Positions 309 to 50,458 of a DNA stretch of 64,000 nt are shown piece by piece. The DNA comes from Phoronis australis (Eukaryota; Animalia; Phoronida): contig NMRA01000079.1 in assembly GCA_002633005.1 (NCBI GenBank), positions 1,021,182 to 1,085,181 of the forward strand. The letters run 5' to 3'. The stretch's first letter is position 1. Each line of letters opens with the position of its first letter. The position numbers and the translations under genes were made by a program. The notes beneath the pieces are model-generated. The model saw only the letters and a program-made list of their open reading frames with translations. It was not told where the DNA came from and ran no database searches.

Positions 309-3300
309 GTATGGTGGTTAATCTGCTTAGAGCTAGGAATAATTCCTTATCAGCATACACGTGCGTTTGTGCACCCATGAGGTGCTGTAAATACACTAAT
401 TGATTTTGCATAGGCTTTCAAGGGCACTGAAGTGCCCGTGACGTACTGTAGCTTGCACGCCCCAAAATGGTATACAATGAAGTCTAACCCGGCTCGATTA
501 CATTATTGTGAAATCATCCTGATCTCATCAAAAACGTACAGTCGTGTAAAAATGCATTGTACACATTTTAACAGCTCTGCCATAATGTTTATTTAAGAAA
601 GTGGTCCATTTTTAGCTTTAGTGTCATAAGTTTAAATTTGATCGAAAATAAGGAAGTATTTGTAATTCAATCCGTGCGAGCAGACATCTACATGTACATG
701 TACGTGTAGATCTGAAGTTGTTCATTGCTGTTCCAGAACGAAGTGCTAGAGATGGCGCGCCGTATGAAGACGAGAGCTCCGAATGCAACTGCCTTGTCTT
801 TTCTTCAGTGGGCGGTGAGGAGAGCTGATTACCAAGCCAGCAAATCACATTTGCCGGTCCTCATTGTAGACGGGTATAAACTCACATCTGAGCTCACCTC
901 TTAGTGTGTTCATTGTTGTAGACTACTTTTGTGATCGATAATACAGGGATTTTCAAAATAGTTCACCATTTTAGAAAAGCGACTAAGATAGACGAATGTC
1001 GCCTACAGGGCGACTTTGAAACCTTCTTCAGAGATAGGAATGAGTTCTAAACCTTCGCGCTGATATACCAATCAAGAAAACTACTGGGCTTACATGTACG
1101 TCAGGTAATCAAGTCATTAATTTATGTCCAAAGTGAAAAGTGAAAAAGTCCTTCACACATTCCAGCCAATGTAATTGATTCTTCCAGTTCGACTGTCTGA
1201 TTTGACATTGGAAACAACAGCTGGCATTGAAGTAAAGGCTCCTAGCATGATATATCCAGAGTGCATTAATTTTCTTAAATTCTGCTTAGGCACGCGGCAA
1301 CAATACTATGTAACCGCCAATCAAATTTCTCTCCGTGCCCTTGGATTTGATTCCAAAACGCCCATTGTCAAAATAAACAAACTGGATCAATAATCCGTGT
1401 AATGACAAATTTTTCTCCTCTTCAGCGAAACGGAGTTTCGTTACTCCGCATACAAAACTGGGCTTTATGTGCACGCAGGAGACATCTGCAACCATCGCGT
1501 TGCTTTGGTGGAAGAAGGTCGCATACTAGACAGAGAAGGTGATCCCATATCAGACATGCAGATGGCGCATGACGTAGGGAGGACGTAAGTAACCTATTCT
1601 GCCAAAACAAACATCTAGTTTAACAGCAGATTTGGCTGTGCAGTCTGAGCATAGCATGCCTCAAGAAATGTCGTCTTAGTGTAAATCCGTCGTTCGTTAA
1701 AATTACGGATTGAATTACACGTAGATCGCTTCTTTCAGGAATCGATATCTTGTACCACTAGTCTAAACTTGTTCACTTCTCAGATTAAACGTGCTCACCG
1801 AGTTCGGAAAGGAATGGCAGATTATTTGAGCATAGGGGAATGCCACGTCATGCAGTTTGAGTATTTATTCAATACCTTTCCAAGTTGGAAGTCAAGTATC
1901 CAGGTTAAAGGCCTGTGGTCCGAGTTATAGACAAAAAACGTTTAACGCCATTTTAGCCGGGTTTTTTGGTATGACGTAAAGTTCATATAGAATATTACAT
2001 GGCGAAGTCGTTATCCCCCGTTATCTAGAGCCCGAGTGGATAATATTGTGGTATAAAAAAGTTATTAACTTTGAATACGTGCACAACATTTGCAAAAGTC
2101 GTTTTTAATGTTACCAACAAATGAGATGTTTACAAAGAATAAAAAGGATAGTCATTAAAATACAAAAGATATTACAATAACGCAACGCATGCGCAGCCAC
2201 AGGGGCAATACCGATACAAAATGCAAAGGTGTACTGCCGAAGGCGAAACGCGGGCGTACTGCTCTACGAGATTCTGAAAAGGACGAATTAGTCAGCAGAA
2301 AAAGCGGCACTACCGACAAACCGTGTACAAAAGCGAGTCGTTCGAAAGGTGTGAAACAATGAGGACAAGATTCAATCTTCGAACTCATAAAAATATTGAA
2401 AGTCTTTCGATGGACAAGTAAGTGTGCTGTTTGTAAAATGTTCAGTGACTCGTATGTACATATGTACGCTTCGAGCGTTCACTGCATGGGTAACTGATCT
2501 CAGTCGACATACATCAGACCAGATTTATTCTGAAGTTAATTCAGTCAGCTGTTCAGTGTTTCTCCTGTGATTTGTTGCCTTTACTTATACCGATTCACAC
2601 TGGCTGAGACTAATTAGTAATTTACACTTGTGAGTGCCAGGTCCTTTCATACTAACGTCGATCCGGCGATATTATGGGGATTTGCGGTCAATGTGAACGG
2701 TTAACTTCGGTCCGTGACCCAAGTTAACAACGCCAGTTAACTTCGCCGTTAACAGGTGACTTATCAGCGGAGCGCAGACGCTGCGGTGCAGTATGAACGG
2801 TCCTTGAACTTCGGTCCCATCGAAGTTATCGCCAGGAGGCACTGTTATCGTCAACGATTACAGAGCAGTGTTCTCGCTAATTGGTTGCTCATATTTTGCT
2901 CAATTCGAATTAGAACTAGGTTTTTGTGCCAATGATTAGCTCGTCAATATTCCCAAATTATAACATAGCGTGCAAGCGATGAATCAGCGCTACCTCGCGA
3001 TTACTTCGATGACAACAGCGCCAGCCACCGTTTACTTCGATGTCCGTTAACTACCGAAGCCTTTATGAACGGTTCAGTTAACTTCGCAGTTTACGCTCAG
3101 ACCGGAGTTAAGTCATTATGAAAGGGCATTTGTATTAGGATAGCAGTTGCCCTGGGGGAGGGGTGGGGGGAGTTTTTAGGCCGTGTAAGGGAGGTGTTGC
3201 CCACTCTCCCTCACATAGCTTTATTAGAAAGCTCGACTTGTCCCTGTTGGTCGTAGTGAGTACACTGGGTGGTGAGTTTTGGTTGACATGGCTGTCTACA

Positions 3301-9300: not shown

Positions 9301-12300
9301 ATAGCAGTCGACATTCAAGGACGATGGTTTTCGAAGCACACGTTAGGCCCTCTGTCCTGTGATCTGATGGATTGTGTTCTTGATAACGTGAGTCGCATAC
9401 TCAAACTCCGAAAAGGGTACAAAAGATAAAAGCAAGAACTTTTACCAACCTCCCACTGTCCCTAGCCTTTTATTTACAAAATCGAGACCATACCACCGAT
9501 AATACAAAGTCAACGAGTATGTTTTATTGGTTTCTGTGCAGTATCACGGTATTTTTAAAACGGATCATGTGAATTGAATGTTCGGTAACACTAGTATTCG
9601 CTGAAATGTGGCCGAAATCACATGGTCTAATTTAAAATGCTCTGCAATATCTCACGTAATCTTGTTAAGTCTTGTTCTTATCGAGGTCCTAGCATTACTG
9701 AACTCTACCCAAGTTAGGGTTATGTAACGCTAGGATCTGCGGAAGGTCCCACGAGGTTGTTTGATATAGTGCCGCGTGTTTTTAATGAGAACATGCTCGT
9801 AAAATTGATATTTCTAGTCGCGAGTCAGCTACATGTAGTGAGCTCTACCCTTTTTTAAATACAGATCGGTACTGCAATATAATTGAAGGTTTGAAACAAA
9901 AGCATTGCCAAAGCACCTACTGTATAAACCTGCGTGCAATCCAAAAAGCGGACTTTAGATTAAAACGGTCAAACCTTGATGGCATTTGTGCCCGCATAAT
10001 TACCGCTTTGTTAAACTAACATGTAGTCTGGCTTCCGTCAAGTATTACGATTCCTACTGTATGTTCTTTACAAGGCGTGAAATGATCTCTTTCCTAGGGG
10101 ATATTTTGGTATCAATTTGAGTGGCCTTTGATAAATCAAAATATTCTTGTTTGGTAACAGAACTGAGACCTGCCTTATTGAATATAAACNTAGCATTACT
10201 GAACTCTACCCAAGGTAGGGTTATGTAACGCTAGGATCTGCGGAAGGTCCCACGAGGTTGTTTGATATAGTGCCGCGTGTTTTTAATGAGAACATGATCG
10301 TAAAATTGATATTTCTAGTCGCGAGTCAGCTACATGTAGTGAGCTCTACCCTTTTTTAAATACAGATCGGTACTGCAATATAATTGAAGGTTTGAAACAA
10401 AAGCATTGCCAAAGCACCTACATGTACTGTATAAACCTGCGTGCAATCCAAAAAGCGGACTTTAGATTAAAACGGTCAAACCTTGATGGCATTTGTGCCC
10501 GCATAATTACCGCTTTGTTAAACTAACATGTAGTCTGGCTTCCGTCAAGTATTACGATTCCTACTGTATGTTCTTTACAAGGCGTGAAATGATCTCTTTC
10601 CTAGGGGATATTTTGGTATCAATTTGAGTGGCCTTTGATAAATCAAAATATTCTTGTTTGGTAACAGAACTGAGACCTGCCTTATTGAATATAAACTCTG
10701 GGAATGAATTACATACTTGGAGTGGTTCGGTCAGGATTTTTTTATGTTCTTTTTCAGTTTAGGTCTGCCAGGAAACCAGCTATCATGTTCCGAGGGCATT
10801 ATGGAATCCCGGGAGACGCATAAAGGTTGGTCCGCTTGTAGCAAGCAGAAATTAAAGAAGATACTAAGGTACTGAAATTAAACCTTCTACTAACCAAGGC
10901 TTTACATGTTACTTAAACGTTAAAGTATATTTGAGAACAGACGACTTGGTTTCTTTTGCTGACATCGCTTTTTGCATTCATGAACATAATTTAAAGTGAT
11001 GTCATTACCGACAACATCGTGTGCTACGCATGCGCAACCCAAGAACGGAAGCCTCAAGAGAAAAACCTGGTGACATGTACCATCAAGAGATGATTGACTA
11101 CACGAATCGAATAACTACATGTATTCAGATGAACGGAGGGCGGTAATAGTTCCCGTAGTCACAGTAGTTTTCTATATAGGCCTACACTGGACAATTAAAC
11201 GTACGAAATCCACGCATAAAACCGCAATTACAGATCACTCTTTTTAGAATCCTTTCTAATCCTGACCAAATCTCGACAAAATCTCCTCAGGTTTTCTATG
11301 TTCATTTTGTCGAAGTTGTTACAATTCATTTCGCAAGTCCATTGTATCAAGTGACATTTAATGCCCAAGCAAACTAGTAACGTAGATCAATTACACTGTG
11401 AACACTATTTTATTGCGACTAAAGGTCGAACAAACTTCTTAAGTCGGAGTTCTGTCGAATTTTGCATATACTATTTTGAAAAATACTTTAGACTGGGCTA
11501 GCCCAGCTTTCAGTTACATGAACACAACATCGCCTAACCCCACCTATCATTCACATGTTGATCATTTCGGTGTGACCGCAATGAAATTTATCTGGCAATG
11601 GAAACGTGTGACTTACAAAACAACACCAATGTGCAAGCTGCCGCATTGACTGAATCTTCGGGATTTTGACTGGATGCCTTAAGCATTGTTGGTTGTTATC
11701 AACATTTGTTGGCATCCATGCTTGATTACCCCTAACAACAGAACAATCATTTATCGTTCAAACTTGCATATTTATAAGAAAACGCACAGACGTGGATAAC
11801 ATCTGGTGGACAGACGTCCTATTTGACGCCTTACGACAAATTAGGGTAACATTTTAAGAAAAGGGACACATTAAGATGGCCGATATCCTGGCAGATAACT
11901 TGCGACAGCCTTTCGCCAATAGAGCCTAATCAAAAATCATTTAATTGGAATGTATACATTTAGGTATATCATTGCCAGAGTAAATTGGTGTGTTTTGTAT
12001 CCCAACACAATTAAGAAATAGCTACCGTGATTACACTTTCCGTCAATGGCGGAATCTGGCAAAGCTAGTGCCTCGTCTTCATTTTTCGCAAAGTAACCTG
12101 TTCTACGAAAAACAGCCTTGCTCTGCCATCTGATTCGTTGGCAGACGCTTAAAAGGAAGAACTGACTACGGTTTGTTTCATCATGCGTGTGGTAAAATAA
12201 TACTCCTTGTGATCGTAGGGCACGGAAGCATTGTCAAAGGGTGTGTACTTTTGACAATCATCCTCCACTAAATTTGTTCACAAGATCACTTTACTCCATT

Positions 12301-15300
12301 CCCAGCGACCCGTGGATATACTCTTGCTTGGAATATCAAGAAGGTTCCATGCCAGTGCCGAAGGCTTCTCTTGGCCTTATTTCAGCGGAGGACTTTGAGG
12401 CAATCAAACAAAACTGTAATGATGACATGGTTGCTACTCACTGGGTATACAAAGGCAAGTTCTCCAGGACAATTAGCTACACACTTCTCGCCAGACGCTT
12501 CTCGCCATGGGTAAGTCGGCTAGGGACACAGAGCATTGTTTGAGAATACATATATTTCGTGTTCACTAGTCAAAAATGCCCTTGTACCTCTTGGCCCCAT
12601 TCATGTTTCAGTGTTAAAGAGTTCCAAGTATTAATTAAAGGTGTATTTGCATGAACCTAACTATGCTAATAAATAGCAGGAACTAAACGTCAATCTATTT
12701 TAACTTCATATGCACTAAACGAGGTGCAGATGTATTCGTAGACACAATGTAAATGTAAAAACAAAAAATAGGAAATAGGTGGCCTTTGCACGAATGGCGT
12801 ATCTTAGGCGCTCGCATAGCCAAGGTCATGCACTGTTATTCCTCACAACCACGTCACGATAATTACTGGATTCGGTTGAGTGATTTACGGAGGATCATTT
12901 TCGACCCAAAATTCGTCCAAAAAAACATTTGGCAGTTTTCAACCTACTTCATATTCACATAATCGCTTGTTTCTAACTAATGTGACCAACTATGAAACAA
13001 TTACAGCAATAAGGAATTAGCGTGCATGTTCCACTTTAAATTCTAACCGTGTCAGTCTGTCAAACTCATTGCATTATTACGTGCAGAGCTACCTAAGATA
13101 GAACTGAGGGACCCACATGGATTATATGTGTGCTTGTATGCTACATCTAATTTCCCAACATCAACCTAAATCAACGCTTCCACTTACCAAGCTATCGCGT
13201 AGTCTAGTACACGTTAATCTTTAAGACCGGCCTCTTTCGTCAGTGGATAAGGGAATGTTCATGCACAGTGAGGGTATTTGACATCGCCACTGCCCGGGTG
13301 AGATTGTGGATTATGAAAACTAAATATGTCTTTGGAAATCGAACTCGGTTTTTCATCGGCAACAGACGAATTTAGAATGGTTTGCCAAAATCTTAGCTGC
13401 CTGAGTAGCACAATAACGGGTTGAATTGTATACATCACTGCACAATAGTGCTTAACTGGGTGGTCTTGATTTCCTGAAAAGAATAGTGTTGTTTCAGCGA
13501 GTGAGCACGTCACGCACGCTTGGCAGCCTTCATAAAGACAACTCGTAAAAATTTAGACGGGATGGGCCTTAAAATCTTTGCTACCAGGATACATGTTCAA
13601 GCAACCTGGGGCTTATGTAGAAATTTGTAGTTACTGGGATTAAAATTTGTTACAACTAAATGTGGTTCTCGACTTTTTTTAGCTGAGGTTTTCCGAGAGA
13701 TCGTTATCCGACATTCAGATCAATTTCAAGTCGCCTTGATGACTTTTGGCTTAGGTAAAACTGGCTGTATTGAAACAAGTCATAGTACGTCTTTTGTATG
13801 TATCGCTACATATATTTCACGCGCTTTGATTAGCAACGCCTGGACAATATCTGCAAGTGGACGCCGTGCAGACGACAAGTTGGCAGATTCAACCAACAAT
13901 TCTATTCTGCAACTCCAAGAAACACAGTGGGTTATCTGTGCGGAAAAAACAAGGTAATTACCTGTTTTCAAAACGGTGTCATATCCCGTTGCGCTGTTGC
14001 TTTGAAAATGTGATTCCGTTTTTTTTGCCTGCTCTGGGGTATCTAAAAGAACACTAGTGGGTGAAATCGTTACCAAAACACGTATTTTGTTTAGATAGCG
14101 TCCCCTAAATCTTAGCTTTTTGCATGGATTGGTGCGTTAACGTAGGTCAAGTGAACCTTTGTCCTAAAATTCTCCTAATTTTCGTTCGTATAGCCGCAAG
14201 TGGTCACAAATAGAAATTCAAATATAAGCAAGCAGTTGGCTCTACAAAGGATGGTGAATACCATAATGCACAATTTCTTGTGCTTACTACGCGCATATTT
14301 TCATATCCTCCCATTGTTAGTGTTTTCCACACAAAGTCTTCGGTCTTTTTATTTTTGCTCATTTTTATGGCATTCAGGACAATGGTGCGACCATTACATA
14401 ATATGTAGGCAGCGTTTTACATGTACACATTTTAGTACCATACTACGGATTGATCTAAAGCTCCGTCTGCGATCCCCTCGACCCCCACACCCTTTGACCC
14501 TCTCAATCCAATTTACTGTGCACAATCTCGACTCTATCTGAAAATACAAAAAGCGCTGACTTGCAGGAACAACGAGTCGGGCCGTGAGTTCGACTGACTT
14601 TCCCCTTTTTGCAATAAAGAGAGTAGATTTGGCAAGTTTGAAAGCCAAAAACGGAAAAATAAACTCGACCTAATCAAACTAAAGACCTACCAACGTTACA
14701 AATGTCGTCCCTGGCAGAGTTCAATCGTCTCGTCTGCTCTTCAGTGAATGATAGATTTAACCTTTTACGTAGAGTGCGAAGAACCGACAAAAACGTAATT
14801 TCATTAGTAAATACAATTTAGAAAACAAACTGTTGACTTAAAAGCATCTCTACTTTACATGGAGTATATTATAGACGAGTATACAACAGAAAGCAAATAA
14901 TAAAAATGTAAAATAATATACATTCACGATAACGTATCTCTCACTAAGTTTAGTAGAACTGGGCCATTGGTAACCAATTAAGAATCTATTTCCGTCGCAG
15001 CGGCAGCACAACCACAATTCGTTATTTCAGAACACGTTCTCACACCAATTTCTGTTTGTAAGCACCCACCTGAGTCAGAGTAGACTCTCGTGTAGTTATG
15101 TCTTTTGGGAAAGTAATTCAGTGTCGTATTAATGATTATAAAATGTGCAGGAAGCGAAAAGATACATCTCTTGCCACAGGTCGTTGGTCAAGGAGGTGTG
15201 GGTCGTGGGTTATGGGTCATGGGGTTGTGGATCGAGAGGCGTGTGGGGGTTGCGAGGGCTTTAGAACAATCCGTATCATATATTCACCGCCTTTTCTTCT

Positions 15301-18054
15301 TCCTGCAACGAAGTCCGCTCCCAGTCGCGGATTTAAGGGGGCATGCCCCCCTAAAATTCTAACAGATACCATTTGGCAGTTCGGGATGCGAATCGATGAC
15401 TAGCATATGCGCGCGCACAGGGGAGCTCGGGGGACGAATGCACAATGCATAGGCCTTCAACTAATCATGTTCACCGTTTTGTTTTAGTAAAAATGTTCGC
15501 AAACCCAAAAATTCGATACCCCAGCATCCCTAGGTTTAGGTTGGACGCGCGCGAGTGGTGAAATTCTGGTTATTCCTGTGCCCTGACTCCCCAACACAAA
15601 ATCCTGGATCCGCCCCTGCCTCCGAGACGCTCCATTAGTTGTCATCAAGAGGGACTGGCATAACTTAGATTATTCATGTATGTGAGAAAAAGTTTTGGGA
15701 CAGTACACAGTAGATACACTGTTGGACCCACCCCCATTTGTCTCATTGTTTTGTCACCCCGCTGCTATCCACAGCATGTCTCGCCGGAAAATATCACCGT
15801 TTTTGAGTAGTATGAACTGACCGTCAGCAGTTCACCCTCGTGTCAGAATATCTCTTCCCAAAAATGCGAATCAAAGCACCAATAGTATGATGTCCTTTAG
15901 GTTATGTATGACCTCTGGACATAATTATAGTTCATTATGCATTAATGGAGAGCTTTAAACGCAATTTCTAATAACGTTTTTTAGAACGGGGAATCTAGAA
16001 TAGAATGTAAAATTTCCATATGAACCCGATCAGGCATATCTTAGGAATGATGATTCAAATTTAGACACATACATGTATGTGTGTACATTTTACTAGGGTC
16101 TAACACGACCGTAGATGTATATTCCTTACCAACCGACATTAAAATTGGTACGCAATCTGACAAGATCTGACAATTCTTGATGGAACGTTTGAGAATACTT
16201 CATAAGTGACCTCGGACTTAACACATTTTTTGTCACTTGTAATGGTACTTGCGTAATCAGAAACGCAGTCAGCACATTTATAATGCTACAGGGTACTGAC
16301 TAAGCACGTTATTTTGTTTTATGGAGCTCGTTCCAGTTCGGTTACCCAGATAGATATACATGTATTGCTAACACGCTCGTGTTCTTCGATTTTGGATTAG
16401 ACCTCCACTTAATTCGCCCAATTCGATTTTCACTAAATTCACTTTGAACATCTATCTTCAGTATCTATCAACAGCTATCTTCACAATTTCAGATTTGCGA
16501 AAATTCAAACCGTTGTGTATCGGCTGGAAACTCAGGCTGTGGTCAAAGAGAGACGTTAACAGAACCCGAGGGAGCCTTGTCTTCGTTTAGATTCAATGGC
16601 AAAGATTTCTACCTTCCGAACATGTTTTGTTCTTGGAGAATCAGGCTTAATAAGAAACAGCAAGTGTCTGTAAGTGACGTCAAATGTACTATAGTTCCGC
16701 AGGGTGTATCACGGCTCATGTATTTTTTCTCCACCTGCCACGAACTCCCAGAGCAATATGATACATGTGCACGTAAACTCGTTCTTAATCCGACAGCATA
16801 CGTTGTAGGCGAGTGAAAGTGACAGTTGGTAATAACACTGACCGTCAACTTCAATTGCAGTAGTAATGACCACATTAGGCTGTTTTTCGTCATTTGTTTT
16901 TGGTTGTTATAATTTAGTTAGGACATTGTGAAAATTGAGAATTCTTTTCATTCACCATTTGAGGAAGAGACATCATGATCGAGGACACGCATACGCCCGT
17001 TGTGGCTTAGGTGGATTATACTATGGACACACTGTCTCTAAATAAGACCAACTGGGTGTTCCTTTCATCAGCATACAGAACAACTTGTCTATACCCCGAG
17101 GGAATAGTAGCTACATGCACGAAGAGAATTTAAGTTCACGAATATATTATTTTTTGAACGTACACGTACATGTAACTCCTCAAATTTGAGTTTTCCTTAG
17201 GTTTTGCTATGCCTATATGCTGCTTCCTGAGTCCTGTTGTGCAATCATAACCTTAGCTGAGGGTAATTTGGCACTCATGATGGTGTTTGTTTGAAAAACA
17301 TTTCAACTAAAGGATCGGTTTCATGAAAGTGGCCTAACGCAGAAACTTGGTCTTAATCAATACCTTGAAATGATGGATAGTAACTAGCAGTTACGTGTGT
17401 AAATTTAAGGAGTTTCCACTTTTGATCAAGTGTGGTTTAAAGTTTTTTAAGAAACAGTTGTGTATACATGTAGGAGCATAAGACTAAACTTTGTCGTAAC
17501 TTTTGTGAAACTTTTCATGAAACACACCCCAGCAGCAATGCACAGAACAAAATTTTAAAGGTAACGTTCAAACGATACTATAAGTGACCAACGTGTGGAC
17601 AAAGGTATTCTTTTTTCTTTAAAATTAGCTGGAAATCCAGGTAATGGATGTCCTCGGCTACGATGATGATAACTGCATGGTGAAAACCGGCTACGTCATA
17701 ATTGGTGACCGGGTGTCTGTTTTCGACGGACCGAGCTCCAAGTCAAAGCACGTGATGACGTTCTGCAATGGAAAACGGGCGATGATTATTTCTTCTACAT
17801 ATATGCTTTATGTAGAATTTGTAACAGACAGTAGCCTAACGTCAGTAGGTACCGGGTTTAAGGCAACGTACACATCCGTTGTGCTTGAAAATGACGGAGA
17901 GCCGTACGTGGTGATATTAGGCCTACCAGAAGAAGACGGTGAGACTCGTGTGGCAAAGTTCCTCTCCAACGGATGCATGAAACCAGTGATATCAATCGAC
18001 ACTATTGTCTCTGCATTGCATATGTTAGTTATGGGAATGCGTGGTCTACTGTAG
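216..18054 (+). CDS. Gene A (5'-partial): ADAMTS-like M12B fold + Cys-rich + CUB protein, predicted catalytically inactive, possible GPI-anchor tail; join(216-308,737-873,1426-1584,10758-10868,12306-12510,13834-13953,16493-16669,17629-18054)
   Basis: 8 GT-AG exons with the same phases and near-identical lengths (93,137,159,111,205,120,177) as paralog exons 3-9; spliced frame open for 475 aa; zinc-motif region reads MAHDVGRTLGLPG; CUB motifs GCG...YLPN..CSWRI...GDRVSVFDG...FCNG...FVTD...GFKATY. Confidence 0.88.
737..873 (+). CDS. Gene A coding exon 4
   Basis: ccag|NEVLEMARRMKTRAPNATALSFLQWAVRRADYQASKSHLPVLIVD-gg|gtataa; 137 nt, phase 0/2 as in paralogs. Confidence 0.8.
1426..1584 (+). CDS. 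Gene A coding exon 5 (degenerate zinc motif, first half)
   Basis: ttcag|ETEFRYSAYKTGLYVHAGDICNHRVALVEEGRILDREGDPISDMQMAHDVGR-ac|gtaagt. Confidence 0.85.
2641..3127. mobile_element. MITE-like non-autonomous element
   Basis: Imperfect terminal inverted repeats gtcctttcata...ccgg / ccgg...tatgaaagggc; multiple internal gttaacttcg sub-repeats. Confidence 0.55.
6261..8003. mobile_element. Non-autonomous hAT-like element
   Basis: Termini CAGGGATAT...ATATCCCTG, subterminal tcgccc/ggcgag repeats at both ends, flanks ccttcc / acttcc resemble a degenerate target duplication. Confidence 0.55.
6718..7826. mobile_element. Tc1/mariner-type MITE nested in the hAT-like element
   Basis: Inverted termini attcgtcctaataagcgccc / gggcgcttattagagcgaatacggTA. 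Confidence 0.65.
9580..9850. mobile_element. Two adjacent copies of a ~140-bp MITE family
   Basis: Shares gttcagtaac.ctaggacct / aggtcctag..tactgaactctaccc ends with 34641-34793, 44558-44680, 60430-60555. Confidence 0.5.
9690..10696. repeat. ~500-bp direct duplication flanking N at 10190 (probable haplotype/contig overlap)
   Basis: 9690-10189 nearly identical to 10191-10696; differences include a 6-bp indel. Confidence 0.9.
10758..10868 (+). CDS. Gene A coding exon 6 (Met-turn)
   Basis: ttcag|LGLPGNQLSCSEGIMESRETHKGWSACSKQKLKKIL-ag|gtactg; 111 nt as in paralogs. Confidence 0.85.
12306..12510 (+). CDS. Gene A coding exon 7
   Basis: ccag|DPWIYSCLEYQEGSMPVPK...RRFSPW|gtaagt; 205 nt. Confidence 0.9.
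13834..13953 (+). CDS. Gene A coding exon 8 (Cys-rich)
   Basis: ttag|QRLDNICKWTPCRRQVGRFNQQFYSATPRNTVGYLCGKNK|gtaatt. Confidence 0.88.
15322..15618. mobile_element. MITE with CAG.GGCGGAT-type termini
   Basis: cagtcgcggatttaagggg ... cctggatccgcccctg; related degenerate copy near 43000-43129. Confidence 0.5.
16493..16669 (+). CDS. Gene A coding exon 9 (Cys-rich end, CUB start)
   Basis: ttcag|[20 protein letters not shown]...YLPNMFCSWRIRLNKKQQVS|gtaagt; 177 nt. Confidence 0.9.
17311..17532. mobile_element. MITE-like element
   Basis: Inverted gtttcatgaaa / tttcatgaaac termini. Confidence 0.4.
17629..18054 (+). CDS. Gene A coding exon 10 (CUB end + C-terminal extension)
   Basis: ttag|LEIQVMDVLG...GFKATYTSV followed by 57 extra residues ending SNGCMKPVISIDTIVSALHMLVMGMRGLL-TAG. 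Confidence 0.85.
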   Translation: MEIQVMDVLGYDDDNCMVKTGYVIIGDRVSVFDGPSSKSKHVMTFCNGKRAMIISSTYMLYVEFVTDSSLTSVGTGFKATYTSVVLENDGEPYVVILGLPEEDGETRVAKFLSNGCMKPVISIDTIVSALHMLVMGMRGLL

Positions 18055-18860
18055 CATACATTTATTATTTACAAGAAAGATTGCAATGTGTCAAGTTGTC
18101 AGACTTCCTTAACACTTTCCAGGCAATTATAAAGTTTCATAAGCGTCAACCGTGTACTATTCGCGTCTTAGGCGGAATCTTTGCACTCGAAACCTAACCC
18201 GAAGTTATCTTTGACATTTTCCGCTCTAGTTTAGTGCAGTTTCAACATAAGCGATCATTGAGCTTGTTTGTTGACTGTCCAATACCAGTTAAACTGAGTT
18301 TTAAGAATCAGCCGGAACTAAAAATGGAGTTTTTGCTCGAAAACTATAAATTTTACGTGGAATCTGGGCGTAGTAAACTCAAGTTTGTGGCTTGAAGTTT
18401 GAAGTCATCTAGCACGACGCTGGACTAGATATTTTTTCTGTGTAAACAGTCAGGTAATCGACCAAGGAGCAATAAGCATTCAGGTTGACCTCGTACCAGA
18501 AGATAACGGGAATTGTCAAAACAATTTTGAGTTCGGGTTTGAGTTAAGAGCTTAAACTGCGTGACCTGATCTGGGCAGGTTGCTTATCATTTTGGTTGTT
18601 GAAGGGATAATAATTTGTAAAAACGCACATGCGATTGCAGTGCACAAAAAGTCGTATACCAAAGTCTCGTTTTCCCATGCACCGATTTCGGGTCACCGCC
18701 AACACGCTGTCGTCGTTCAGAAGTAGTCGTGGTAGCAGATGGCGTCTGCCAAATCAAGATTTTCGCCTCAAAAGAGGGATCCGACGTTTCCTGGGGTGGT
18801 CATCCCTCGAATTACCAGTTAGTTAATGGAGCAGGCATCGGCGTGTAATTTCAGTTGTCG

Positions 18861-19228
18861 TACCGCGAATTTCCGTAGATAAGCCAATGGGTGTGTTTTC
18901 GGAAAATGAAAAATTCCAAGCGTTTTAGCAACACCAAATAAACACCAGGGTGTCTATCCAGAAAAAGAGGCGTGTAAACGCAAAAATATGGTTTTGCTGA
19001 CTTTGACATTTTTTACTTAATTTTATGTTATTAAATGCATAGCTCGCCAACACCTTGTTCGCTTTTAAAATGATAGGTGCTTCACAACATTGAATTTGTG
19101 ACAAAAAGTTGAGGCTTAATGGAACTAGACTCCAAATAAACGCCCATGGGCGTGTAATCGGCATAATTTTCCAAATAAATGCCCATGGGCGTTTTATGGG
19201 TTGGGCTTATCTATGGAAAATCCTGGTA
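18861..19228. mobile_element. Tc1/mariner-type MITE
   Basis: TAccgcgaatttccgtagataagcc ... ggcttatctatggaaaatcctggTA; TA at both ends; gcccatgggcg subterminal repeats. Confidence 0.6.
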
Positions 19229-19353: not shown

Positions 19354-20102
19354 TCAAACTTATGATGCTACAAATTCACTGATATTTAGTAAATCCCACG
19401 TCAACTCAACTGCTTCATTCAGCCTATTTTAGGACATTTAGCGAAGCCGATATCAACTCAACAACTTCATTTTTTAATTTTATCGTTCATTGCAAACACA
19501 TTACTACTTCGTGAAATCAATCGTGTTTAAAGGCGAAGGCAACCTTTTTCCATCTCATTTTGAGCTAAAATAAGGTTGGTTGGTTATCCTAGACATATTT
19601 TCCACTTAATTACAGCTTTTCGTAATTTTATTAATTACTCGTCTGCTACTCCGGAAATGACGTTTTAGGAGGCAAGCGTTTCCCGCCACTTGGTTTTGCG
19701 TTGACTTTACCGTGCGAATCTGTTCTATTCTACTTTTGTTTTGTGCTNTCTCCCTCGTGTAACGACTACACCCCTAAGTTGTCTAAATCTGAATTACAGT
19801 AGGTTTCTCCCACGGAAAGTGGATTCCGCTGTAAAACGATTTTGAAACAGTGATGATGGTGGTCTCATTTACGTTTGCATGTAGCAGCGTTATACCTTCC
19901 GAGCAACAAGACGAACCGATATTATGAATAAGAATCGTCAAAATGACGTGACCTTATTCGTTTCAAACTCTAGAAAATCGATGATTTGTTCAACCTACTC
20001 CACATCTCGTTGTTTTACCGCGTAAGAATATCAGTTTTGCTACTTAGTCACTGCGCTTCTGTATCCCTGCGCGGGCGTATGTGTACTCAACGCTCGCGCA
20101 TG

Positions 20103-24500: not shown

Positions 24501-27500
24501 TCAAAGTCCGCATTTGCTCTTCAGACAACTGTAATGCACTCATCACTTGAAGGGAAATGAACAACGCAAACTGCAGTCGAACAGGGTGCACATTTAATAT
24601 GTTCACACAATTAAAACATTCACATTGAGTTAATGATAGTGAAGACCTTTTGATAAAATGACCATTGTTTAATCTGAGTTTACATTTTCCAGGATAATCT
24701 CAGCATAATGCGATTGCTGTTATGGTTAGTGGTTTTCTCTGCCGGTGAGTACGTAACACTACCGTAGGCTACTACTTTCCTTGATTTTATGTTGCGTATG
24801 AAGAATAAATTATTTAAAATTAGCAACACCAGTCTCCGGGAAGTTTTCGTTTTTTTTGTGGGAATCGAACTCGAACTATGTCCGTTATACTGAAGTGTAG
24901 ACACAAGAGAACTGCCAATACTTCCATTATAGGGGTATATTTTGGTTTGCCAGGCTGACTGCGAGATCTTATTTTGCAATTGATTGGGTTCGAGTTCTGA
25001 GTCTGAACACAAAATGTCGAAATTTTACCCGAGTTTCAAGTTGGAGTTTAATGGTCAGCAAGTGCGAATTTGGACTGCACATTACACAAACCAAACCAAG
25101 CACAGAACAGCAGACACTCGCTCGCACTACAAGTAGAGGAGAAGAAAAATGCCAAAAGTACTTTTAAGTTCGTTTACCATATAAAGACGTGTTCTCGAGC
25201 CCGCATTGTCTTTGTCTCTCTCAAACCTGAGATTAATTGTTGGCTTCTCATCGCAATTGTACAAAATTGAAACGTGTTTCCAGCAAATGTTAAATCAAAC
25301 ATGTGCTAATTGGTTTTATGTGTATATATTGAAAAGGCATTGAAGGTAATTATTTATCAGTGGGTGTTTGTTAACGTAGTTGAATAAGTACAAGTAGACT
25401 GATGAAACGCAAATACAAATGGTTATATGAATTCATTTACATCCACATTTGTAAACTTGCATTACGCCTTCTTGGAAGAAAACACGTAGAACGAAAACTC
25501 AAATAGCGTGGCTTAGTGTTTTCTGTAAACAAAACTTGGATTATAGTAGCTGGTAATTTTTCTTGCACGTGCTTAATCCCAGATAAATCAATGCCATCAG
25601 TCAACTAAACGTGCACGTTATTTGCAAAATATCTCGTAATTTTGATTTGGCGTGAGCCCTAAATTTCTTTTTTGCAAAAAAAAAACGCAAACTTGCCCAT
25701 CACTGATATTGTGATAAGAACAATACTCCTACCCCATTGTGAAAATGCATGGGCCATATACTGGAGGAAAAAGAAAAGACAGTTACTGGTGTTTTATGCC
25801 GTTGCATTGGCTATAGGCCTGAAGTGAAACTTTCCCCAAAGTACAGGCCTACATCTAAGGGAAAAGGAACGGTATTTGGATGAGATTAGTCGGGAGCTGC
25901 TTGGTTTCGCCCATTCAGCCATGCAGGATTTTTTCGTTTTCGTTAAAATGCTTCATTTCCAGTATAATGCTTCTAAACGGAAACAACTAACCACAGGCCA
26001 ACTGATCCTTGACCTCCAGTGATGCGTGCATGGATAAATCGTCGACTTGCTCTCAAGTTTTCCTTGGATTCTTAACAGTTACAAATAAAAATGATGCTAT
26101 TATATTACTCTGAAGTGGTGATTTGTGTCTTTCAGTTTCAGTGAGTGGCAGCGGCGCTCGGCGGCACAGGGCAAGGGTTCGAGGCGACGAGGGGATGCGA
26201 CGTAAAGTTCGAATTGCGCTCTTCTTCTCCAAAAGTCTCATGGATTCGTGGGTGTCTAGGAAGAATGTGCCTGCAAGCGAATTGACCGACTATCTGCAGT
26301 CCACATTTCTGCAAGAGGTAGGGTTTTAGAATCCCATAAGTCATTTGAGTTCCACGTTGTCAAAGGCAGCTTACAAAGTCTATGAGTTCTTGATTGTTCA
26401 TTCTCAGCGGTACTATCGTGTGCATGCATTGCATGCCGCCGTTCCCTGCATTTGTAAACGCTGCTCCGGGGCTAAGATTTGATGTCGTTTTGTTAAGGCC
26501 AGTTTAGCCAACGATATTCTCATTTGCATCATATCTTTTATGCCCAAGACCGACATAACGCATGTTCTTATTACAGAATCCAATATTCTACGATACCAAT
26601 TTGACAATTATACCATTGATTATCCCCAGTCTGGTCATTTGCATCTACATGGATGCATGAAAACTGATAATAACCTTATTAAACAAATTTAGTCATTACC
26701 AGTTGATGCAACAAGAATCATCAGAGTGTCCAGAAAAATTGAGCAAGAGCCAAGTTTGTGCGGAACTGCATTATAGTTTGCGTTGTCAGAATCTTTCTCT
26801 TTGAACCCACACCAAGTATTAGTTGAGGGCTTAGGTTAGCCAGTGATCTATTACAATGTAATGCTCAGTCTATGTGTGTTGTTACTGAGTGGTCTCGAAC
26901 GACCTTATTACATTTTCAAGTTGCAGAAGCTTTTTGTTTGGTATACTACACTGTTAGACTTGAATAATTCGGTAAATTTTAACCAGCTCAATTTTAATGA
27001 CTCGATTATTACTATTACTACTTTTATTTTTATTATTGTTTTTGTTATTAATATTACTATTATTATTATTATTATTATTATTATTGTTATTGTTATTGTT
27101 ATTGTTATTGTTATTGTTATTGTTATTGTTATTGTTGTTGTTGTTGTTGTTATTGTTATTATTACACGAATTATACATGTAAATAGTGCTATACCGGAAG
27201 TAGTAGCTCAGCACTGGCGGCAGCACATACAGCAGCCGCCGCCGATCTAGGATTTAAGGTACAGGATTTTACTGTACCTGCGGCGTCATCTTTGTTGTGT
27301 AGGCCTTATTTTTATGGTGCCTCCTGATCAAACTAAGAGCATCAGTCTCACTAGCAGCATTACTTGATACAGTAGGCGCAGCAGTAGTAGCGCCTTACCG
27401 CTAGTCGAACCAGTGGCACTAAGAAGCAGAAGCCGTCCCGGTAGTTGGGACGTGTAAGTAAAGTGAGCTATAGAAGCGCCGGTTACACTACTCGCGCTAG

Positions 27501-33500: not shown

Positions 33501-36092
33501 TACCTCCCGAGTTTATTTGCCGTGCTTCTAACCTTTATCGAATTCCTCAAATTCCACGGATACATGTAGCTACACGTTTCCTGGACACTCTAGTCTGCCA
33601 CACAACAATATTACTCCCCGCTTTAAACGTTGTACTTAAAGCTCCCAACGTATTTCAGTGGCACGAGGAGAACGTCTGCAGATGGCTGCCTTGCCGCCAG
33701 GAATATAAAGGGAAGGCGTTGTTTTACGCTTTGGCTCCGTTGACTGGATTCCGGTGTGGCGAAAACAAGGTGTGTCAATTTTAGAAATTTGTAGGACACC
33801 TCGATCCGATGTAATTAGTATGCTTGTTTACTGGTGCACGTACGTTCTATGTTGGCGAATCTAGTCAACATTAAAGGCAGATGCTTTCATCTGCCGCACT
33901 TGAAATAATCATAACGATAAATCGTCGTGAGAGACCGTCCGGAGTTGGTACATGTATATGGCGCAAGTCCGGACGGTCTGGGGTCAATAAAAAACCACAG
34001 TTCAATTGTGCAATGCGATAAACGAGAGTAGTTCTACTTGATGCGTTGCAGGTATGCTTATCTCTTTTATGACAAACAATCTGAGACCAGGCAAAGTGTT
34101 TTTAAAATAATGTGGATAAATCAGTGGAGTGTGAGACCCCTGAGGTCCCTGTCAAGTCCTCACGACAATTCTACCTTATGATGTACATTTGTAGCATAAA
34201 AAGCACGCAATACGTGTCCACGTCATTTCGTTTGCTGGAGAAAGTTTTCCCATCAATATTTCTCCGGTTTTCACTGAATGGATACATGCACAGGTTACAA
34301 CATGTGCCATTCCTTTTGATTATCCGATAATTGGATTTGTGATTCGCCCTTTTATGTGTTTGTTTCTGATCAAGAATCTAGATACCGTTTTCCTAAAAAT
34401 GATTTGTTTGAAAATAACTTCACAATCATGGATCGCATTACTGATGCTAAACGCGAAATAGTTGGGAAGTGGACTTTACCTCGGTTGCACTGTATTGTTC
34501 TAAATGAAAAACACAGCGCTGTGCTTCAGACCAAAATAGCTACGCAAAAATCTAGATACGAAAACGCATGCGCAAACTATGCCAGAATGGCCTATTTGAT
34601 TGATGACTTACATGTACTGCGTAGGATTTGAATGCACCAGCCTCCCGTTCAGTAACACTAGGACCTCGCTAAAAAGCAAGACTTCGCGAGATTACGTGAG
34701 GAATTACCGTGTATTTTAAATGAGAGCACGTGACTTTGACTAGGTTTTAGCTAGGTCCTAGCGTAGGTCCTAGCGTCTACTGAACGCACGCCAGCTTTGG
34801 TAATATGATCCTGGCCTGATATGAATGTTCAAACACATTATCAGATGGATAAAGTCAAGTGTTGAGTGTAATACTCAACAACAGAAACAAATCACGGCAT
34901 TATGAGATGTGACTGGTGTTACCCAACAACCAGACGCGTTCAGATGACAGAAGACCAGCACGAATTTGGCAAGGTGACAAGGACCACACCAAACTAAGCA
35001 AGTGACTTCGAGTGTTACGCAACTGAGCTCGAGTTCCTACTCGCATACACCAGCTAAATAGTTGAAGTAACTCTGGCGAGGGTCTAGTGTTTAATTATAG
35101 AATACATATAGAGGCCATTGTTTCCCAGCTAGAAAGTTTCTCGCCGTGAGATCCAAGCAAGTGTCTTGCTGTCGACTTTCCCGGGCTCTGAATCTCAGAA
35201 TGTAACGTCAAGACACTAAACAAAATTTGTTATGTCTTACACAGATTTGTGAAAGTGAAACCAGGTGCGTATCGGCCGGAAACTCTGGTTGTGGAAAGAC
35301 GAGCGAACTAGGAGGGCTGAAGGGCTCGTTCTCGTCGTATAAATACAACGGACTAAGACGTTATCTTCCCAACTTAAAGTGTGCTTGGCGAATTACAGTA
35401 CCAAGAGGGCTACGAGTCAAGGTAACTGGTTTGAGAGAAAAGCTTGATGTAACAACGATTTAGTACCAGTGCTGTGGTTGTCATAGTTACATTGCCACCT
35501 ACTTCCACTACATGTACATATGTACATTTTCAATATGTTGATTTATAGGAAGTCTTACGATAATTTGTTTAATATATTATTTTTATCCACGAGATCTAGC
35601 AAAACCACATTATAAATGTTCTCTGTGTAGATGTCTTGTTAAAGTGCCTTTCATTAATGATTTGAAAGGGATGCTTACATGTATCTCGTTCGCTATCATT
35701 TTCTGCTGATGAGTTTGCATACTTTGTATGAACATGAAGGTTACACTCTACAGTGTATAAGCCCTGTGCTCAAGCTGTGATAAAGGAATGTGTTTTTCTC
35801 CAATCACGCGCAGGAGGTAACAATACTTTAAACCTGTTGGTATGCATTACAGCTAAGTTTCGAGAGCATGGACGTACCGGGCAGATTTGGTTGTGGCACC
35901 GGACCGTATGGCGGCGACAGTGTTAACGTCTATAATGGAGACGACTCCGCGGCACCGTTAATGGCAAAATTGTGTAACTCTCGGTTGAAGACCGTCAAAT
36001 CTTCGTCAAACGTCCTTTACGTAACTTTTACCTCCGACCATAATGCCAAAACAGCAGGGTCGGGTTTTCAAGCGGTTTACAAGGCATTCTAG
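21465..36092 (+). CDS. Gene B: secreted ADAMTS-like zinc metalloprotease with Cys-rich and CUB domains, 482 aa; join(21465-21501,26136-26317,31137-31229,31482-31618,32452-32607,32741-32851,33129-33333,33659-33769,35245-35421,35853-36092)
   Basis: 10 GT-AG exons total 1449 nt with no internal stop; HEVGHIFGFQH, Met-turn DIMWSP, ADAMTS-type FCDW, VC..SC, WS.C, PCL; CUB domain. First exon least certain. Confidence 0.9.
21560..22590. mobile_element. Decayed interspersed element, Helentron/DINE-like
   Basis: Ends in gact/gaca/gacg tetramer run followed by short hairpin (tccac...gtgga) and A/T-rich tail; boundaries approximate. Confidence 0.3.
23325..23348. repeat. (GCGT)n microsatellite
   Basis: cgtgcgtgcgtg run. 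Confidence 0.8.
26136..26317 (+). CDS. Gene B coding exon 2
   Basis: SVSGSGARRHRARVRGDEGMRRKVRIALFFSK...FLQE|gtaggg. Confidence 0.88.
27006..27163. repeat. (TTA)n/(TTG)n compound microsatellite
   Basis: Direct reading; produces poly-N/L/I pseudo-ORFs. Confidence 0.95.
31137..31229 (+). CDS. Gene B coding exon 3
   Basis: [31 protein letters not shown]|gtaacg. Confidence 0.9.
31482..31618 (+). CDS. Gene B coding exon 4
   Basis: AELRRRQIQLKRTNGDYAGAAAFCDWSKDRMSAADEWNIPAYITD-gg|gtaaat. Confidence 0.9.
32452..32607 (+). CDS. Gene B coding exon 5 (HExxH)
   Basis: IRQADFNARTPGRAFGMGRVCEKSCVVMEG...LLAHEVGH-at|gtaagt. Confidence 0.92.
32741..32851 (+). CDS. Gene B coding exon 6 (third His, Met-turn)
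   Basis: gcag|FGFQHPPAGCRADIMWSPGRNDNWSVCTKRKALEIF-ag|gtgagt. Confidence 0.92.
33129..33333 (+). CDS. Gene B coding exon 7
   Basis: [26 protein letters not shown]...KKAPQW|gtacgc. Confidence 0.92.
33659..33769 (+). CDS. Gene B coding exon 8
   Basis: WHEENVCRWLPCRQEYKGKALFYALAPLTGFRCGENK|gtgtgt. Confidence 0.9.
34641..34793. mobile_element. ~150-bp MITE (best copy of local family)
   Basis: cgttcagtaacactaggacct ... aggtcctagcgtctactgaacg inverted termini. Confidence 0.6.
35245..35421 (+). CDS. Gene B coding exon 9
   Basis: [17 protein letters not shown]...[20 protein letters not shown]|gtaact. Confidence 0.92.
35853..36092 (+). CDS. Gene B coding exon 10
   Basis: LSFESMDVPG...GSGFQAVYKAF-TAG; AATAAA downstream at 36581. 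Confidence 0.92.
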   Translation, partial: LSFESMDVPGRFGCGTGPYGGDSVNVYNGDDSAAPLMAKLCNSRLKTVKSSSNVLYVTFTSDHNAKTAGSGFQAVYKAF

Positions 36093-48300: not shown

Positions 48301-50458
48301 GAAACTCTTAGTTTCATGTGTTTATTATAATGGAATTAGTCCCCTCACATGTACATCCCGTATGTTTAATGTTCAACGGTATGTATCACAGATTTGTTGA
48401 TGCCTGTGATCGAGCGGGAATAACCGATCTCTGGTTAAACTTTCAGTGGCACAAGGAAAACGTCTGCAAATGGCGGCCTTGTCGAACGGAAGACGGACCA
48501 TCCTATTACGCTTTGACGCCGTTGACAGGATATCGTTGTGGCGTTAATAAGGTGCTACCGTAACACTGTTGGAATCTGTTTTTGATGTTCTGCACGCGGA
48601 CACGATGAAACGGAATGATGAAACTTGAGCACACAAAGTCCCTTACACATTGTTGTTCGAATTTCAGAAGGAGAAAGGTTTAAAATGTGTAGGCAAACAG
48701 TTTCCCATTTCTTTAACATGGACCAATCGCCAACAAAAATTAAATTCACCAGAAAAAAAGTGTTACATGCATTATACACGTATCCTGACGTGCATACTGC
48801 CATTTGTATTCTGGATGCAGACATTGTATTCAAAAGGTCTGTCGCTATTAATATTTTAAAATGCGTTCTTTCATTCTTTGAAAATCAATATTCAAAAACC
48901 TATTCATATTTTTTCACTATGTCATGAGTGCCTCGTGGAAAGTACTTTCTGAGAACGTTGTCCATAGGTAGTTGCTATGTGACGTACATATAACAACTTG
49001 TATTTTTCAGATATTACATTAGAACCTCATGGATTAAACATGAAACTTCTTAAATTTTATCATTTAATTTTTTCCGCAACTATGTATAATATTCATTACG
49101 CCACATCTTAAATGTCATTTGTCATATAGTGATTTTACTTTATTTCTGTTTCTGTTGACGGAGGACATTATTACATCCGAAAATTTCAGTTGATTCATTC
49201 TTGTTGTTTTCATTATTTACCTATTTATATTTCAGATATGTGATAATGAGACGAGTTGTGTATCAGCCGGAAATTCTGGTTGTGGAGCGACACGTGACAT
49301 GGGAGGAATAAAGGGCTTGTTTTCGTCGTACAAGTACACAGAGCGAAGTCATTACCTTCCTAACTTAAAGTGTGCCTGGAGAATTACAGTTCCAAAAGGA
49401 CAAAGAGTAGAGGTAAGTGAACAGGATTATGCAGTTGAATTTACCGTAGAGTAAGTCAATACAAAATACATGCAATCTTCAAAAGAAGCCTGACAACGTC
49501 CAGTGTTGACAATGTTCCAACGCTCAAAACCATGGGGTTAATTTCCGCCAAATCTCACCAGATGGTGCTCCTGAAATTATTTACAACTTATCTTGCAACA
49601 CATTCACATAAGGAGGCGGGGTTAGAAACGCCACGATCAACTCTGGCAAAAGTACGACAAAAACATTCTAGTGGTACGAAAGTTCAACTTAACTGCCACA
49701 CAGTTCTGGTAGGAATTGCAATCAAGATTGACAAAGTCTCTGTTGAAAAGTGATTTAAATGTATATGGATTTAAGCGTTGTGTTGTTTTTCTGAGTGGAG
49801 TAACAGATTGAGTTGTACGCTCACGTCACATTTAACACTGTTAAAACTATTTTACTAAAAATGGTTCCAGTGCTACTACGTGTACATGTACCTGGAATTC
49901 TGAGGAATGGGCTCATCATTTAACCAAAATACTACCTCGTCGTGGATACGGTTTACCCATTTCAGCAGTCATGTGGTATCTGGCCTTAAAACCGACTGCA
50001 AATTGACGTAGATTTTGCAAAGTTTGTAACGAGCTATGAAACGATCCCCATACTCAAGTTTTAATCCTGTGGAGTAAAAGTGGATACAACTCAATGATAT
50101 ACAAAACATTTACTAGTTACAAATATAATAACTCCTGTTTCAGTATCACTCCAAAATTTAAAACGAGGCTCTGCGTGGTGTGCACTGTGGGTTCATGAGT
50201 TACTTCCGTTGATTTCAGCTGAGTTTCTTGACTATGGACGTTCCTGGCCTGGCCTATTGTGGAGTCAACCAGTACGGGGGAGATAGCGTTGACGTTTACA
50301 ATGGGCGTGACACCAACGCATCACTAGTTGCATCGCTGTGCAACGGCATCTTGAAAACTGTCAAATCGACGCCAAATGTCCTGTATGTGACGTTTAGGTC
50401 AGACAGGCATGATCTCATAACAGGGAAGGGCTTCGTGGCAGTTTACAAGTCAGTGTGA
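39073..50458 (+). CDS. Gene C: secreted ADAMTS-like zinc metalloprotease with Cys-rich and CUB domains, 483 aa; join(39073-39109,39705-39886,40431-40523,40967-41103,43433-43594,45456-45566,47137-47344 [or 47917-48124],47667-47771 [or 48447-48551],49236-49412,50219-50458)
   Basis: 10 exons total 1452 nt open frame; N-terminus [12 protein letters not shown] signal-like; HEVGHILDFQH, DIMRSP; exons 7-8 appear twice around an N. Confidence 0.9.
39705..39886 (+). CDS. Gene C coding exon 2
   Basis: [32 protein letters not shown]...FLQK|gtaatg; 182 nt. Confidence 0.85.
40431..40523 (+). CDS. Gene C coding exon 3
   Basis: [31 protein letters not shown]|gtaatc. Confidence 0.9.
40967..41103 (+). CDS. 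Gene C coding exon 4
   Basis: [45 protein letters not shown]-aa|gtaagt. Confidence 0.9.
42200..42380. repeat. (TG)n microsatellite
   Basis: Direct reading. Confidence 0.95.
43433..43594 (+). CDS. Gene C coding exon 5 (HExxH)
   Basis: [32 protein letters not shown]...LLAHEVGH-at|gtaagt. Confidence 0.9.
45456..45566 (+). CDS. Gene C coding exon 6
   Basis: gtag|[36 protein letters not shown]-gg|gtgaga. Confidence 0.9.
45950..46200. repeat. Degenerate (CAT/CAC)n low-complexity tract
   Basis: catcatc/caccac-rich decayed trinucleotide repeat. Confidence 0.65.
47137..47344 (+). CDS. Gene C coding exon 7, copy a
   Basis: [26 protein letters not shown]...VAPQW|gtaaga. Confidence 0.8.
47667..47771 (+). 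CDS. Gene C coding exon 8, copy a
   Basis: [35 protein letters not shown]|gtgcta. Confidence 0.8.
47917..48124 (+). CDS. Gene C coding exon 7, copy b (probably the other allele)
   Basis: 780-nt offset copy of 47137-47344 with 4 substitutions. Confidence 0.7.
48447..48551 (+). CDS. Gene C coding exon 8, copy b (probably the other allele)
   Basis: Identical to 47667-47771. Confidence 0.7.
49236..49412 (+). CDS. Gene C coding exon 9
   Basis: [21 protein letters not shown]...[20 protein letters not shown]|gtaagt. Confidence 0.92.
50219..50458 (+). CDS. Gene C coding exon 10
   Basis: [10 protein letters not shown]...[14 protein letters not shown]; AATAAA at 50489 and 50519. Confidence 0.92.
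   Translation: MSFLTMDVPGLAYCGVNQYGGDSVDVYNGRDTNASLVASLCNGILKTVKSTPNVLYVTFRSDRHDLITGKGFVAVYKSV

Follow-up and report, generated by a model that had tools for sequence, protein, structure and literature searches.

A candidate glycosylphosphatidylinositol-attachment signal at the C terminus of a predicted M12B-like pseudo-protease in Phoronis australis

The last exon of gene A and its transcripts

The window analysed here comprises 64,000 nucleotides of intron-rich, animal-type DNA from the phoronid Phoronis australis (assembly GCA_002633005.1, contig NMRA01000079.1, positions 1,021,182 to 1,085,181 of the forward strand), and all positions below are counted from its first letter. Mutual tblastn searches of exons identified four tandem plus-strand paralogs, designated A, B, C and D, with the 5' end of gene A and the 3' end of gene D falling outside the window. 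Judged indirectly, through relatives, the cluster looks like one that encodes secreted proteins combining an M12B (reprolysin)-like domain with a CUB domain and an intervening Cys-rich region. Eight exons of gene A lie in the window; every intron is GT-AG, and the exons give 475 codons in frame without an internal stop (Table 1). In the last of them, the frame of the second CUB half continues for 57 further codons (17881-18051) to a TAG stop at 18052-18054. We describe here the resemblance of this tail to a signal for glycosylphosphatidylinositol (GPI) attachment, and consider with moderate confidence that it is one, in which case A would be a surface-tethered, inactive M12B-like and CUB protein, and the motif-intact B and C would be released.

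The original prediction, made from the letters of the window, held that B and C terminate right after the CUB domain, and this was borne out: B ends in YKAF (stop at 36090-36092) and C in YKSV (stop at 50456-50458), at the position equivalent to the end of the CUB domain in A. Its statement that A alone carries a tail holds for B and C but does not reach D, which runs from 57.4 kb to the window end and has its last exon outside the window. Ser-Asn-Gly-Cys followed by a hydrophobic end was present as described. The linker ahead of it was only partly the acidic stretch that had been claimed, with seven Asp or Glu among its first 21 residues but a hydrophobic 7-mer, YVVILGL, breaking the stretch. 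Ser-Asn-Gly is the sole site in the tail with a small residue at omega (the attachment residue), a non-Pro residue at omega+1 and Gly, Ala or Ser at omega+2, and nothing cytoplasmic follows the hydrophobic end, with which the protein ends.

Raw RNA data came from three runs labelled as the same species (X1, X2 and X3, all of one study; X1 and X2 are stranded). For X1 and X2, which share alleles and may come from one animal, 18-19% of each run was read and aligned to a 901-base region, giving 137 and 110 reads; joints and loose ends were recorded from three reads upwards. Reads of X1 and X2 carried spliced joints of A at 12509-13833 (21 + 26), 13951-16491 (34 + 20) and 16669-17629 (16 + 32). 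Depth was 25-40 in the CUB part of the last exon, 18.8/12.3 (X1/X2) over the stop and zero in the upstream intron, and all of it was on the sense strand.

Within the tail lies a donor-like site, ACG/GTGAGA, at which, the original prediction had cautioned, transcripts might be spliced out (at 17939). Its strength of 6.4 bits compares with 4.7-11.4 bits for 27 donors of the window's genes. Depth in X1/X2 was 36.9/26.0 before the site, 40.5/26.4 across it and 36.7/22.8 after it, and about 66 reads of X1 and X2 over the site contained neither a joint nor a loose end, the only loose ends in the alignment being those at the upstream exon and at a repeat at 18200-18236. Both expressing libraries (2/2) therefore contradict splicing at 17939, as they cross the site without a joint or a drop in depth. 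The continuous depth through 17939 to the stop indicates that the tail is the true end of the terminal exon of A in X1 and X2, and the tail belongs to the mature A mRNA. A stronger donor in the CUB part (9.4 bits at 17640) was also unused, showing that donor-like sequences can stay silent in this exon. X3 had no reads on the last exon of A, and so provided no test of splicing, and X4 contigs touched only repeats. The presence of A transcripts in X1 and X2 and not in X3 suggests that expression is tissue- or stage-restricted. Short interspersed repeats at 12640-13030, 14600-15050, 15340-15620, 18200-18236 and 18870-19210 draw reads of many other transcripts on both strands.

These data bear on the alternative that A is anchored by an uncleaved hydrophobic end crossing the membrane once, with no cytoplasmic tail, or that a second isoform splices from 17939 to a transmembrane exon in other tissues. 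The end does offer 19-22 mostly hydrophobic residues, the donor-like site exists, and the expression data come from two libraries of one study. We nevertheless regard this alternative as very improbable, given the lack of a joint or loose end in the reads over the site and a best 19-residue Kyte-Doolittle mean in the tail of 1.59, in a segment with Asp and His inside. Moreover, none of the nine phase-1 acceptor candidates listed up to 24690 encodes a strongly hydrophobic segment (best 1.41), although an N gap at 19748 could conceal an exon.

Table 1. Positions of gene A features and of the paralog ends in the window
Feature	Position	Strand	Basis or remark
A upstream exons, N-terminal part of M12B-like domain	216-308 and 737-873	+	216-308 by tblastn to C; 737-873 picked by eye, likeness to B/C/D exon
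A exon, degenerate zinc motif HDVGR	1426..1584	+	Read from DNA
A exon, third zinc His position (Gly) and Met-turn	10758..10868	+	Read from DNA
A exon, end of M12B-like domain and start of Cys-rich region	12306..12510	+	Paralog identity; RNA depth and joint
A exon, Cys-rich region	13834..13953	+	Paralog similarity; RNA joints (21 + 26 and 34 + 20 reads)
A exon, first CUB half	16493..16669	+	Pfam CUB, E 3.9e-4; RNA joints at both ends
A terminal exon	17629-18054	+	Second CUB half, tail and stop
A second CUB half, in exon shared with tail	17629..17880	+	Pfam CUB, E 3.5e-5, 24.5 bits, residues 25-81; junction 16669-17629
A C-terminal extension, 57 codons and stop	17881..18054	+	Translation; continuous RNA depth in X1 and X2
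Linker, 28 residues, acidic with internal hydrophobic 7-mer	17881..17964	+	Sequence
Donor-like site ACG/GTGAGA	17936..17944	+	GT at 17939-17940; 6.4 bits
Predicted omega/omega+1/omega+2, Ser/Asn/Gly	17965..17973	+	28 residues follow omega
Predicted spacer, 7 residues (omega+3 to omega+9)	17974..17994	+	
Hydrophobic end, 19 residues	17995..18051	+	Mean Kyte-Doolittle 1.4
A 3' untranslated region, ~95 bases	18055..18150	+	RNA depth ~zero by 18150
B terminal coding exon	35853..36092	+	Stop directly after CUB
C terminal coding exon	50219..50458	+	Stop directly after CUB

Fit of the tail to a GPI-attachment signal

GPI signals are described as having a five-region layout (10.1101/838680; PMC2571997): a polar linker leads to a small omega residue, position omega+2 is Gly, Ala or Ser, and the spacer, which extends to omega+9, is followed by a hydrophobic end. 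Work on PLAP found Gly to be the only residue as good as Ala at omega+2, and Pro the only one not tolerated at omega+1 (PMC2119539). The Ser-Asn-Gly of A has the favoured Gly at omega+2 and a non-Pro residue at omega+1, and the tail follows the layout in its small omega residue, its spacer from omega+3 to omega+9 and the hydrophobic run that then reaches the C terminus. Under a re-implementation of the window-9 hydropathy score of PMC9520029, uncalibrated on the sequences of that paper, the tail sums to 26.2-26.8 and would rank 42-46 among the 130 human GPI signals of its Table S2. The ends of B and C, and those of two Tubulanus polymorphus relatives introduced below (P0005 and P0006), fail even a lenient omega and hydropathy rule. 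In NetGPI, the strongest evidence against a signal comes from polar and charged residues (10.1101/838680), and charged residues, namely Arg, are documented within genuine GPI tails (PMC3497722).

By four sequence criteria the tail of A is GPI-like, which would place A, as an unproven prediction, among GPI-anchored proteins. The resemblance that had originally been proposed stands in the omega and omega+2 residues, the spacer and the length of the tail, and falls short in an atypical linker and in the Asp, His and Arg of the tail. A crude sum of insertion-scale values for the tail (+6.7) was not relied on.

If the tail acts in this way, A would be directed into the endoplasmic reticulum by a signal peptide whose exon precedes the window, and GPI transamidase would cut after the Ser at 17965-17967, removing 28 residues. 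The GPI would replace the removed residues, the linker would remain on the mature protein, and the M12B-like, Cys-rich and CUB ectodomain would stay attached to the outside of the cell. Anchored A would there bind instead of cutting, as a receptor, decoy or docking site for substrates or secreted paralogs, a role that we propose by analogy with non-catalytic ADAMs.

Another explanation is that A is secreted with its tail uncleaved. As an amphipathic helix, the tail would then pack against the protein, mediate oligomerisation, or attach to membranes or matrix. The Asp, His and Arg of the hydrophobic end are spaced seven residues apart (i, i+7, i+14) on one helix face and form, together with Ser and Gly, a narrow polar stripe at 100-200 degrees on the helical wheel. 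Both low-confidence AlphaFold models (mean pLDDT, the predicted local confidence score, 37.4 and 40.6) place a helix at exon residues 123-140, and YVVILGL in the linker is predicted as a strand, also with low confidence. However, the hydrophobic moment of the tail (18-residue) is a modest 0.2-0.4, and the only Ser-x-Gly site of the tail precedes the helix at the proper distance. The tail also lacks a match to any Pfam family, and the ESM Atlas gave only CUB clusters (0.86-0.87) and none for the tail. We therefore consider an uncleaved amphipathic helix possible, though on balance unlikely.

Chance resemblance and constraint in the tail

Of 127,654 starting positions across the window, 6,519 (5%) open into an in-frame run of at least 57 codons, and 9 of 312 ends of open reading frames (ORFs) of at least 57 amino acids combined an omega-type site with a last-20 hydropathy as high as that of A. 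When simulated read-throughs were appended to the CUB part, 230 of 25,152 passed the omega and hydropathy rule at the score of A, and 34 passed at that score with a length of at least 57 residues; the simulated read-throughs begin at overlapping points, and the rule was devised with the tail already in view. Shuffles of the tail's own residues passed the rule at the score of A in 531 of 20,000 cases, and that so few did suggests that residue order in the tail matters. The GC content of the tail (0.47) is exon-like, compared with 0.32 in the untranslated region (UTR) and 0.38 in the intron. The codon-position composition of the whole tail was matched by 2 of 306 ORF ends, and its first 19 codons are coding-like (GC content of 0.79 and 0.21 at the first and second positions).

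Alleles in the reads were also compared. The tail has three common differences, all at third positions (two silent, one Met-Ile), with no insertion, deletion or stop, and a rare first-position variant, Asp-Tyr, was seen in 4 of 34 reads of X1 only. Six allele differences fall in the CUB part of this exon, four of which change the residue, and Fisher's test on the alleles gave p 0.036. These observations indicate that the tail is probably constrained, and the high share of residue-changing alleles at 17629-17880 possibly reflects relaxed or diversifying selection on a binding domain.

The tail might instead be a near-neutral extension, left by a lost stop codon or by the retained start of an intron at 17939, with a GPI likeness arising by chance on an A that is secreted or degraded. 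A donor-like site of realistic strength does lie in mid-tail, and A is the most divergent paralog, sharing 35-37% identity with B, C and D where exon 12306..12510 was aligned. Simple stop-codon loss, which the original prediction had named as one outcome that would undo it, is nevertheless unlikely from the simulation, in which so few read-throughs matched both length and score, and, weakly, from the alleles, which lack a frameshift or stop. The exon-like GC content, the equal silence of the stronger donor at 17640, and the lack of likeness between the tail DNA and the 3' UTR of B or C (33 of 200 and 103 of 200 shuffles scored as well, respectively) also count against a near-neutral tail, which we regard as improbable. 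The tail matched no repeat within the window of which it could be a copy.

Several observations weigh against a GPI signal, some of them in favour of near-neutrality. At a lenient threshold, 2,297 of the 25,152 simulated read-throughs (9%) passed. The first 19 codons supply the coding-like signal; the 37 codons with the omega site and hydrophobic end are unremarkable, their composition being matched by 223 of 887, and the portion after 17939 lacks coding-like composition. The Fisher p for the alleles became 0.11 once the rare Asp-Tyr variant was counted, and was 0.051 for the tail against the first 32 bases of the UTR. The Kyte-Doolittle scale favours Ile/Val-rich tails such as that of A, this tail has Asp, His and Arg all on one helix face, and among the ten residues before omega the first five are polar and the last five include Val-Ala-Lys-Phe-Leu. 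The earlier exons of A and its signal peptide would lie upstream of position 1, off the window, and the two exons carrying the degenerate zinc motif lie outside the RNA alignments, their sequence coming from DNA. Finally, the searches described below found no orthologue of A.

A predicted pseudo-protease, its relatives and known systems

Metzincins are characterised by the motif HEXXHXXGXXH and a downstream Met-turn (PMC4885070). The complete motif is present in B, and in C and D it can be read across their two exons. In A the first His is kept, but Glu is replaced by Asp, the second His by Arg and the third by Gly, so that its exon reads HDVGR where B and C have HEVGH and D has HEIGH; the Met of the Met-turn is retained. 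As the catalytic Glu and two of the three zinc His are lost, A is predicted to be inactive, a point that the original prediction did not raise. Gene A is spliced and expressed downstream of the exons with the degenerate motif, and its product would most simply be a pseudo-protease that acts by binding.

The CUB halves of A scored 24.5 bits with PF00431 on the last exon (cut-off 21.4) and 21.1 bits on the preceding exon, and a Pfam scan of eight exons gave no match to a disintegrin domain. A single exon of B gave a PDB match at E 0.1. A candidate signal-peptide exon of B, judged by eye, lies near 24708-24744, and in B (24690-32610), and similarly in C and D, a short signal-peptide exon appears to be followed almost at once by the catalytic domain, so that there seems to be no space for an ADAM-type prodomain. 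An Arg-Gly-Asp tripeptide immediately precedes the opening strand of the M12B-like domain in B (26177-26188), with a basic cluster upstream of it, and in C (39749-39760), and is absent in D; in B and C it could be an integrin-binding or processing site. Downstream of the A stop, polyadenylation may be directed by TATAAA at 18128.

Near-identical tandem copies occur at 9690-10700 (98.4% over 502 bases) and at 47000-48570 (98.8% over 769 bases, duplicating two exons of gene C). Each pair abuts exactly at one N, at 10190 and 47791 respectively, and both pairs are likely scaffold-join artefacts of two haplotypes. Between C and D, at 56060-56420, a tandem repeat of ~57 bases is open in several frames on both strands.

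The only true relatives that we found in public proteins were two from Tubulanus polymorphus, LOC141909758 (P0006) and LOC141910207 (P0005). In the orthologue searches, none of 207 candidates qualified when the last exon was compared with longer proteins, and none of 926 with a four-paralog profile; P0005 as a query against longer proteins gave 1 of 87. HMMER over 1.84 billion representatives returned five matches, of which one was a family relative and four were repeat-driven, unrelated by Pfam and rejected. A 25-base tail pattern had no occurrence in metagenome contigs, and P0005 fell with reprolysin clusters in the ESM Atlas, under 0.8. Both Tubulanus proteins have the M12B-like domain and the same Cys-rich region as the A family, and exons in the window match P0006 at E 2e-8 to about 1. 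Their Reprolysin Pfam matches (E 3e-4 to 1e-3), P0006's included, are below the curated cut-offs, and P0006 has an intact zinc motif. In contrast to A, both lack a CUB domain and have a polar C terminus, and P0006, the longer of the two, has three N-terminal ShK domains; they are not orthologues of A. We also rejected the tail as a remnant of a neuropilin-like discoidin domain: an alignment to neuropilin-1 reaches only exon residue 106, adds just the likeness L-G-x-x-x-E-x-G-E, ends ahead of the conserved part and is due to chance.

Non-catalytic ADAMs include ADAM11, ADAM23 and sperm ADAMs, and ADAMs span the membrane with a helix that is followed by a cytoplasmic tail. Known membrane-bound M12B proteins, including those covered in the M12B review PMC4885070, use transmembrane helices. 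A search of that review, which describes ADAM22 as non-catalytic, gave no occurrence of the term GPI. A resembles ADAM22 in its M12B-type domain, broken zinc motif, Cys-rich region, membrane tether (predicted in A) and presumed binding role. Unlike ADAMs proper, which have a prodomain and a disintegrin domain, A has a CUB domain in place of a disintegrin match and a GPI-like end with no cytoplasmic tail after it.

GPI-anchored proteases are also established, as the human set of 130 includes MMP17, MMP25 and testisin, along with the inhibitor RECK (PMC9520029 Table S2), but those hosts are matrix metalloproteinases or serine proteases and A is M12B-like. With animal GPI signals A shares the small omega residue, Gly at omega+2, a seven-residue spacer, a terminal hydrophobic run without a cytoplasmic tail and a hydropathy inside the human range. 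It departs from typical ones in the hydrophobic pre-omega residues of the linker and in the Asp, His and Arg of the tail, and attachment is only predicted in A. CEACAM5-8 are GPI-anchored paralogs from a CEACAM1-like ancestor (PMC2832619), and A resembles them in having one paralog's C terminus anchored differently from those of its siblings. The CEACAM signals arose by truncation of a transmembrane exon (PMC2832619), whereas the predicted signal of A occupies a stretch added to the CUB exon and may represent a gain in A or a loss in B and C. Our searches of open-access text listed no GPI-anchored M12B pseudo-protease, with or without CUB. Single-paralog GPI signals, GPI-anchored proteases and dead ADAMs are already known; their combination, a GPI-like end on a predicted dead M12B and CUB paralog, did not come up in these searches.

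In its fullest form, the preferred reading of the tail as a GPI signal would make A a GPI-anchored dead member of an undescribed invertebrate M12B and CUB family. It would serve as a sheddable surface decoy or docking protein that keeps its active, secreted neighbours in place or in check, and its signal would derive from sequence read through where the CUB exon ends, possibly a captured intron start. Taken as a whole, this picture is doubtful and rather unlikely. If the tail were merely amphipathic or neutral, A would simply be a pseudo-protease whose C terminus has diverged in an ordinary way. If it is a GPI signal, the cluster would offer a compact natural case of a duplicate that switched both its location and its job beside motif-intact siblings, and a cheap test of the minimal sequence needed for a GPI signal.

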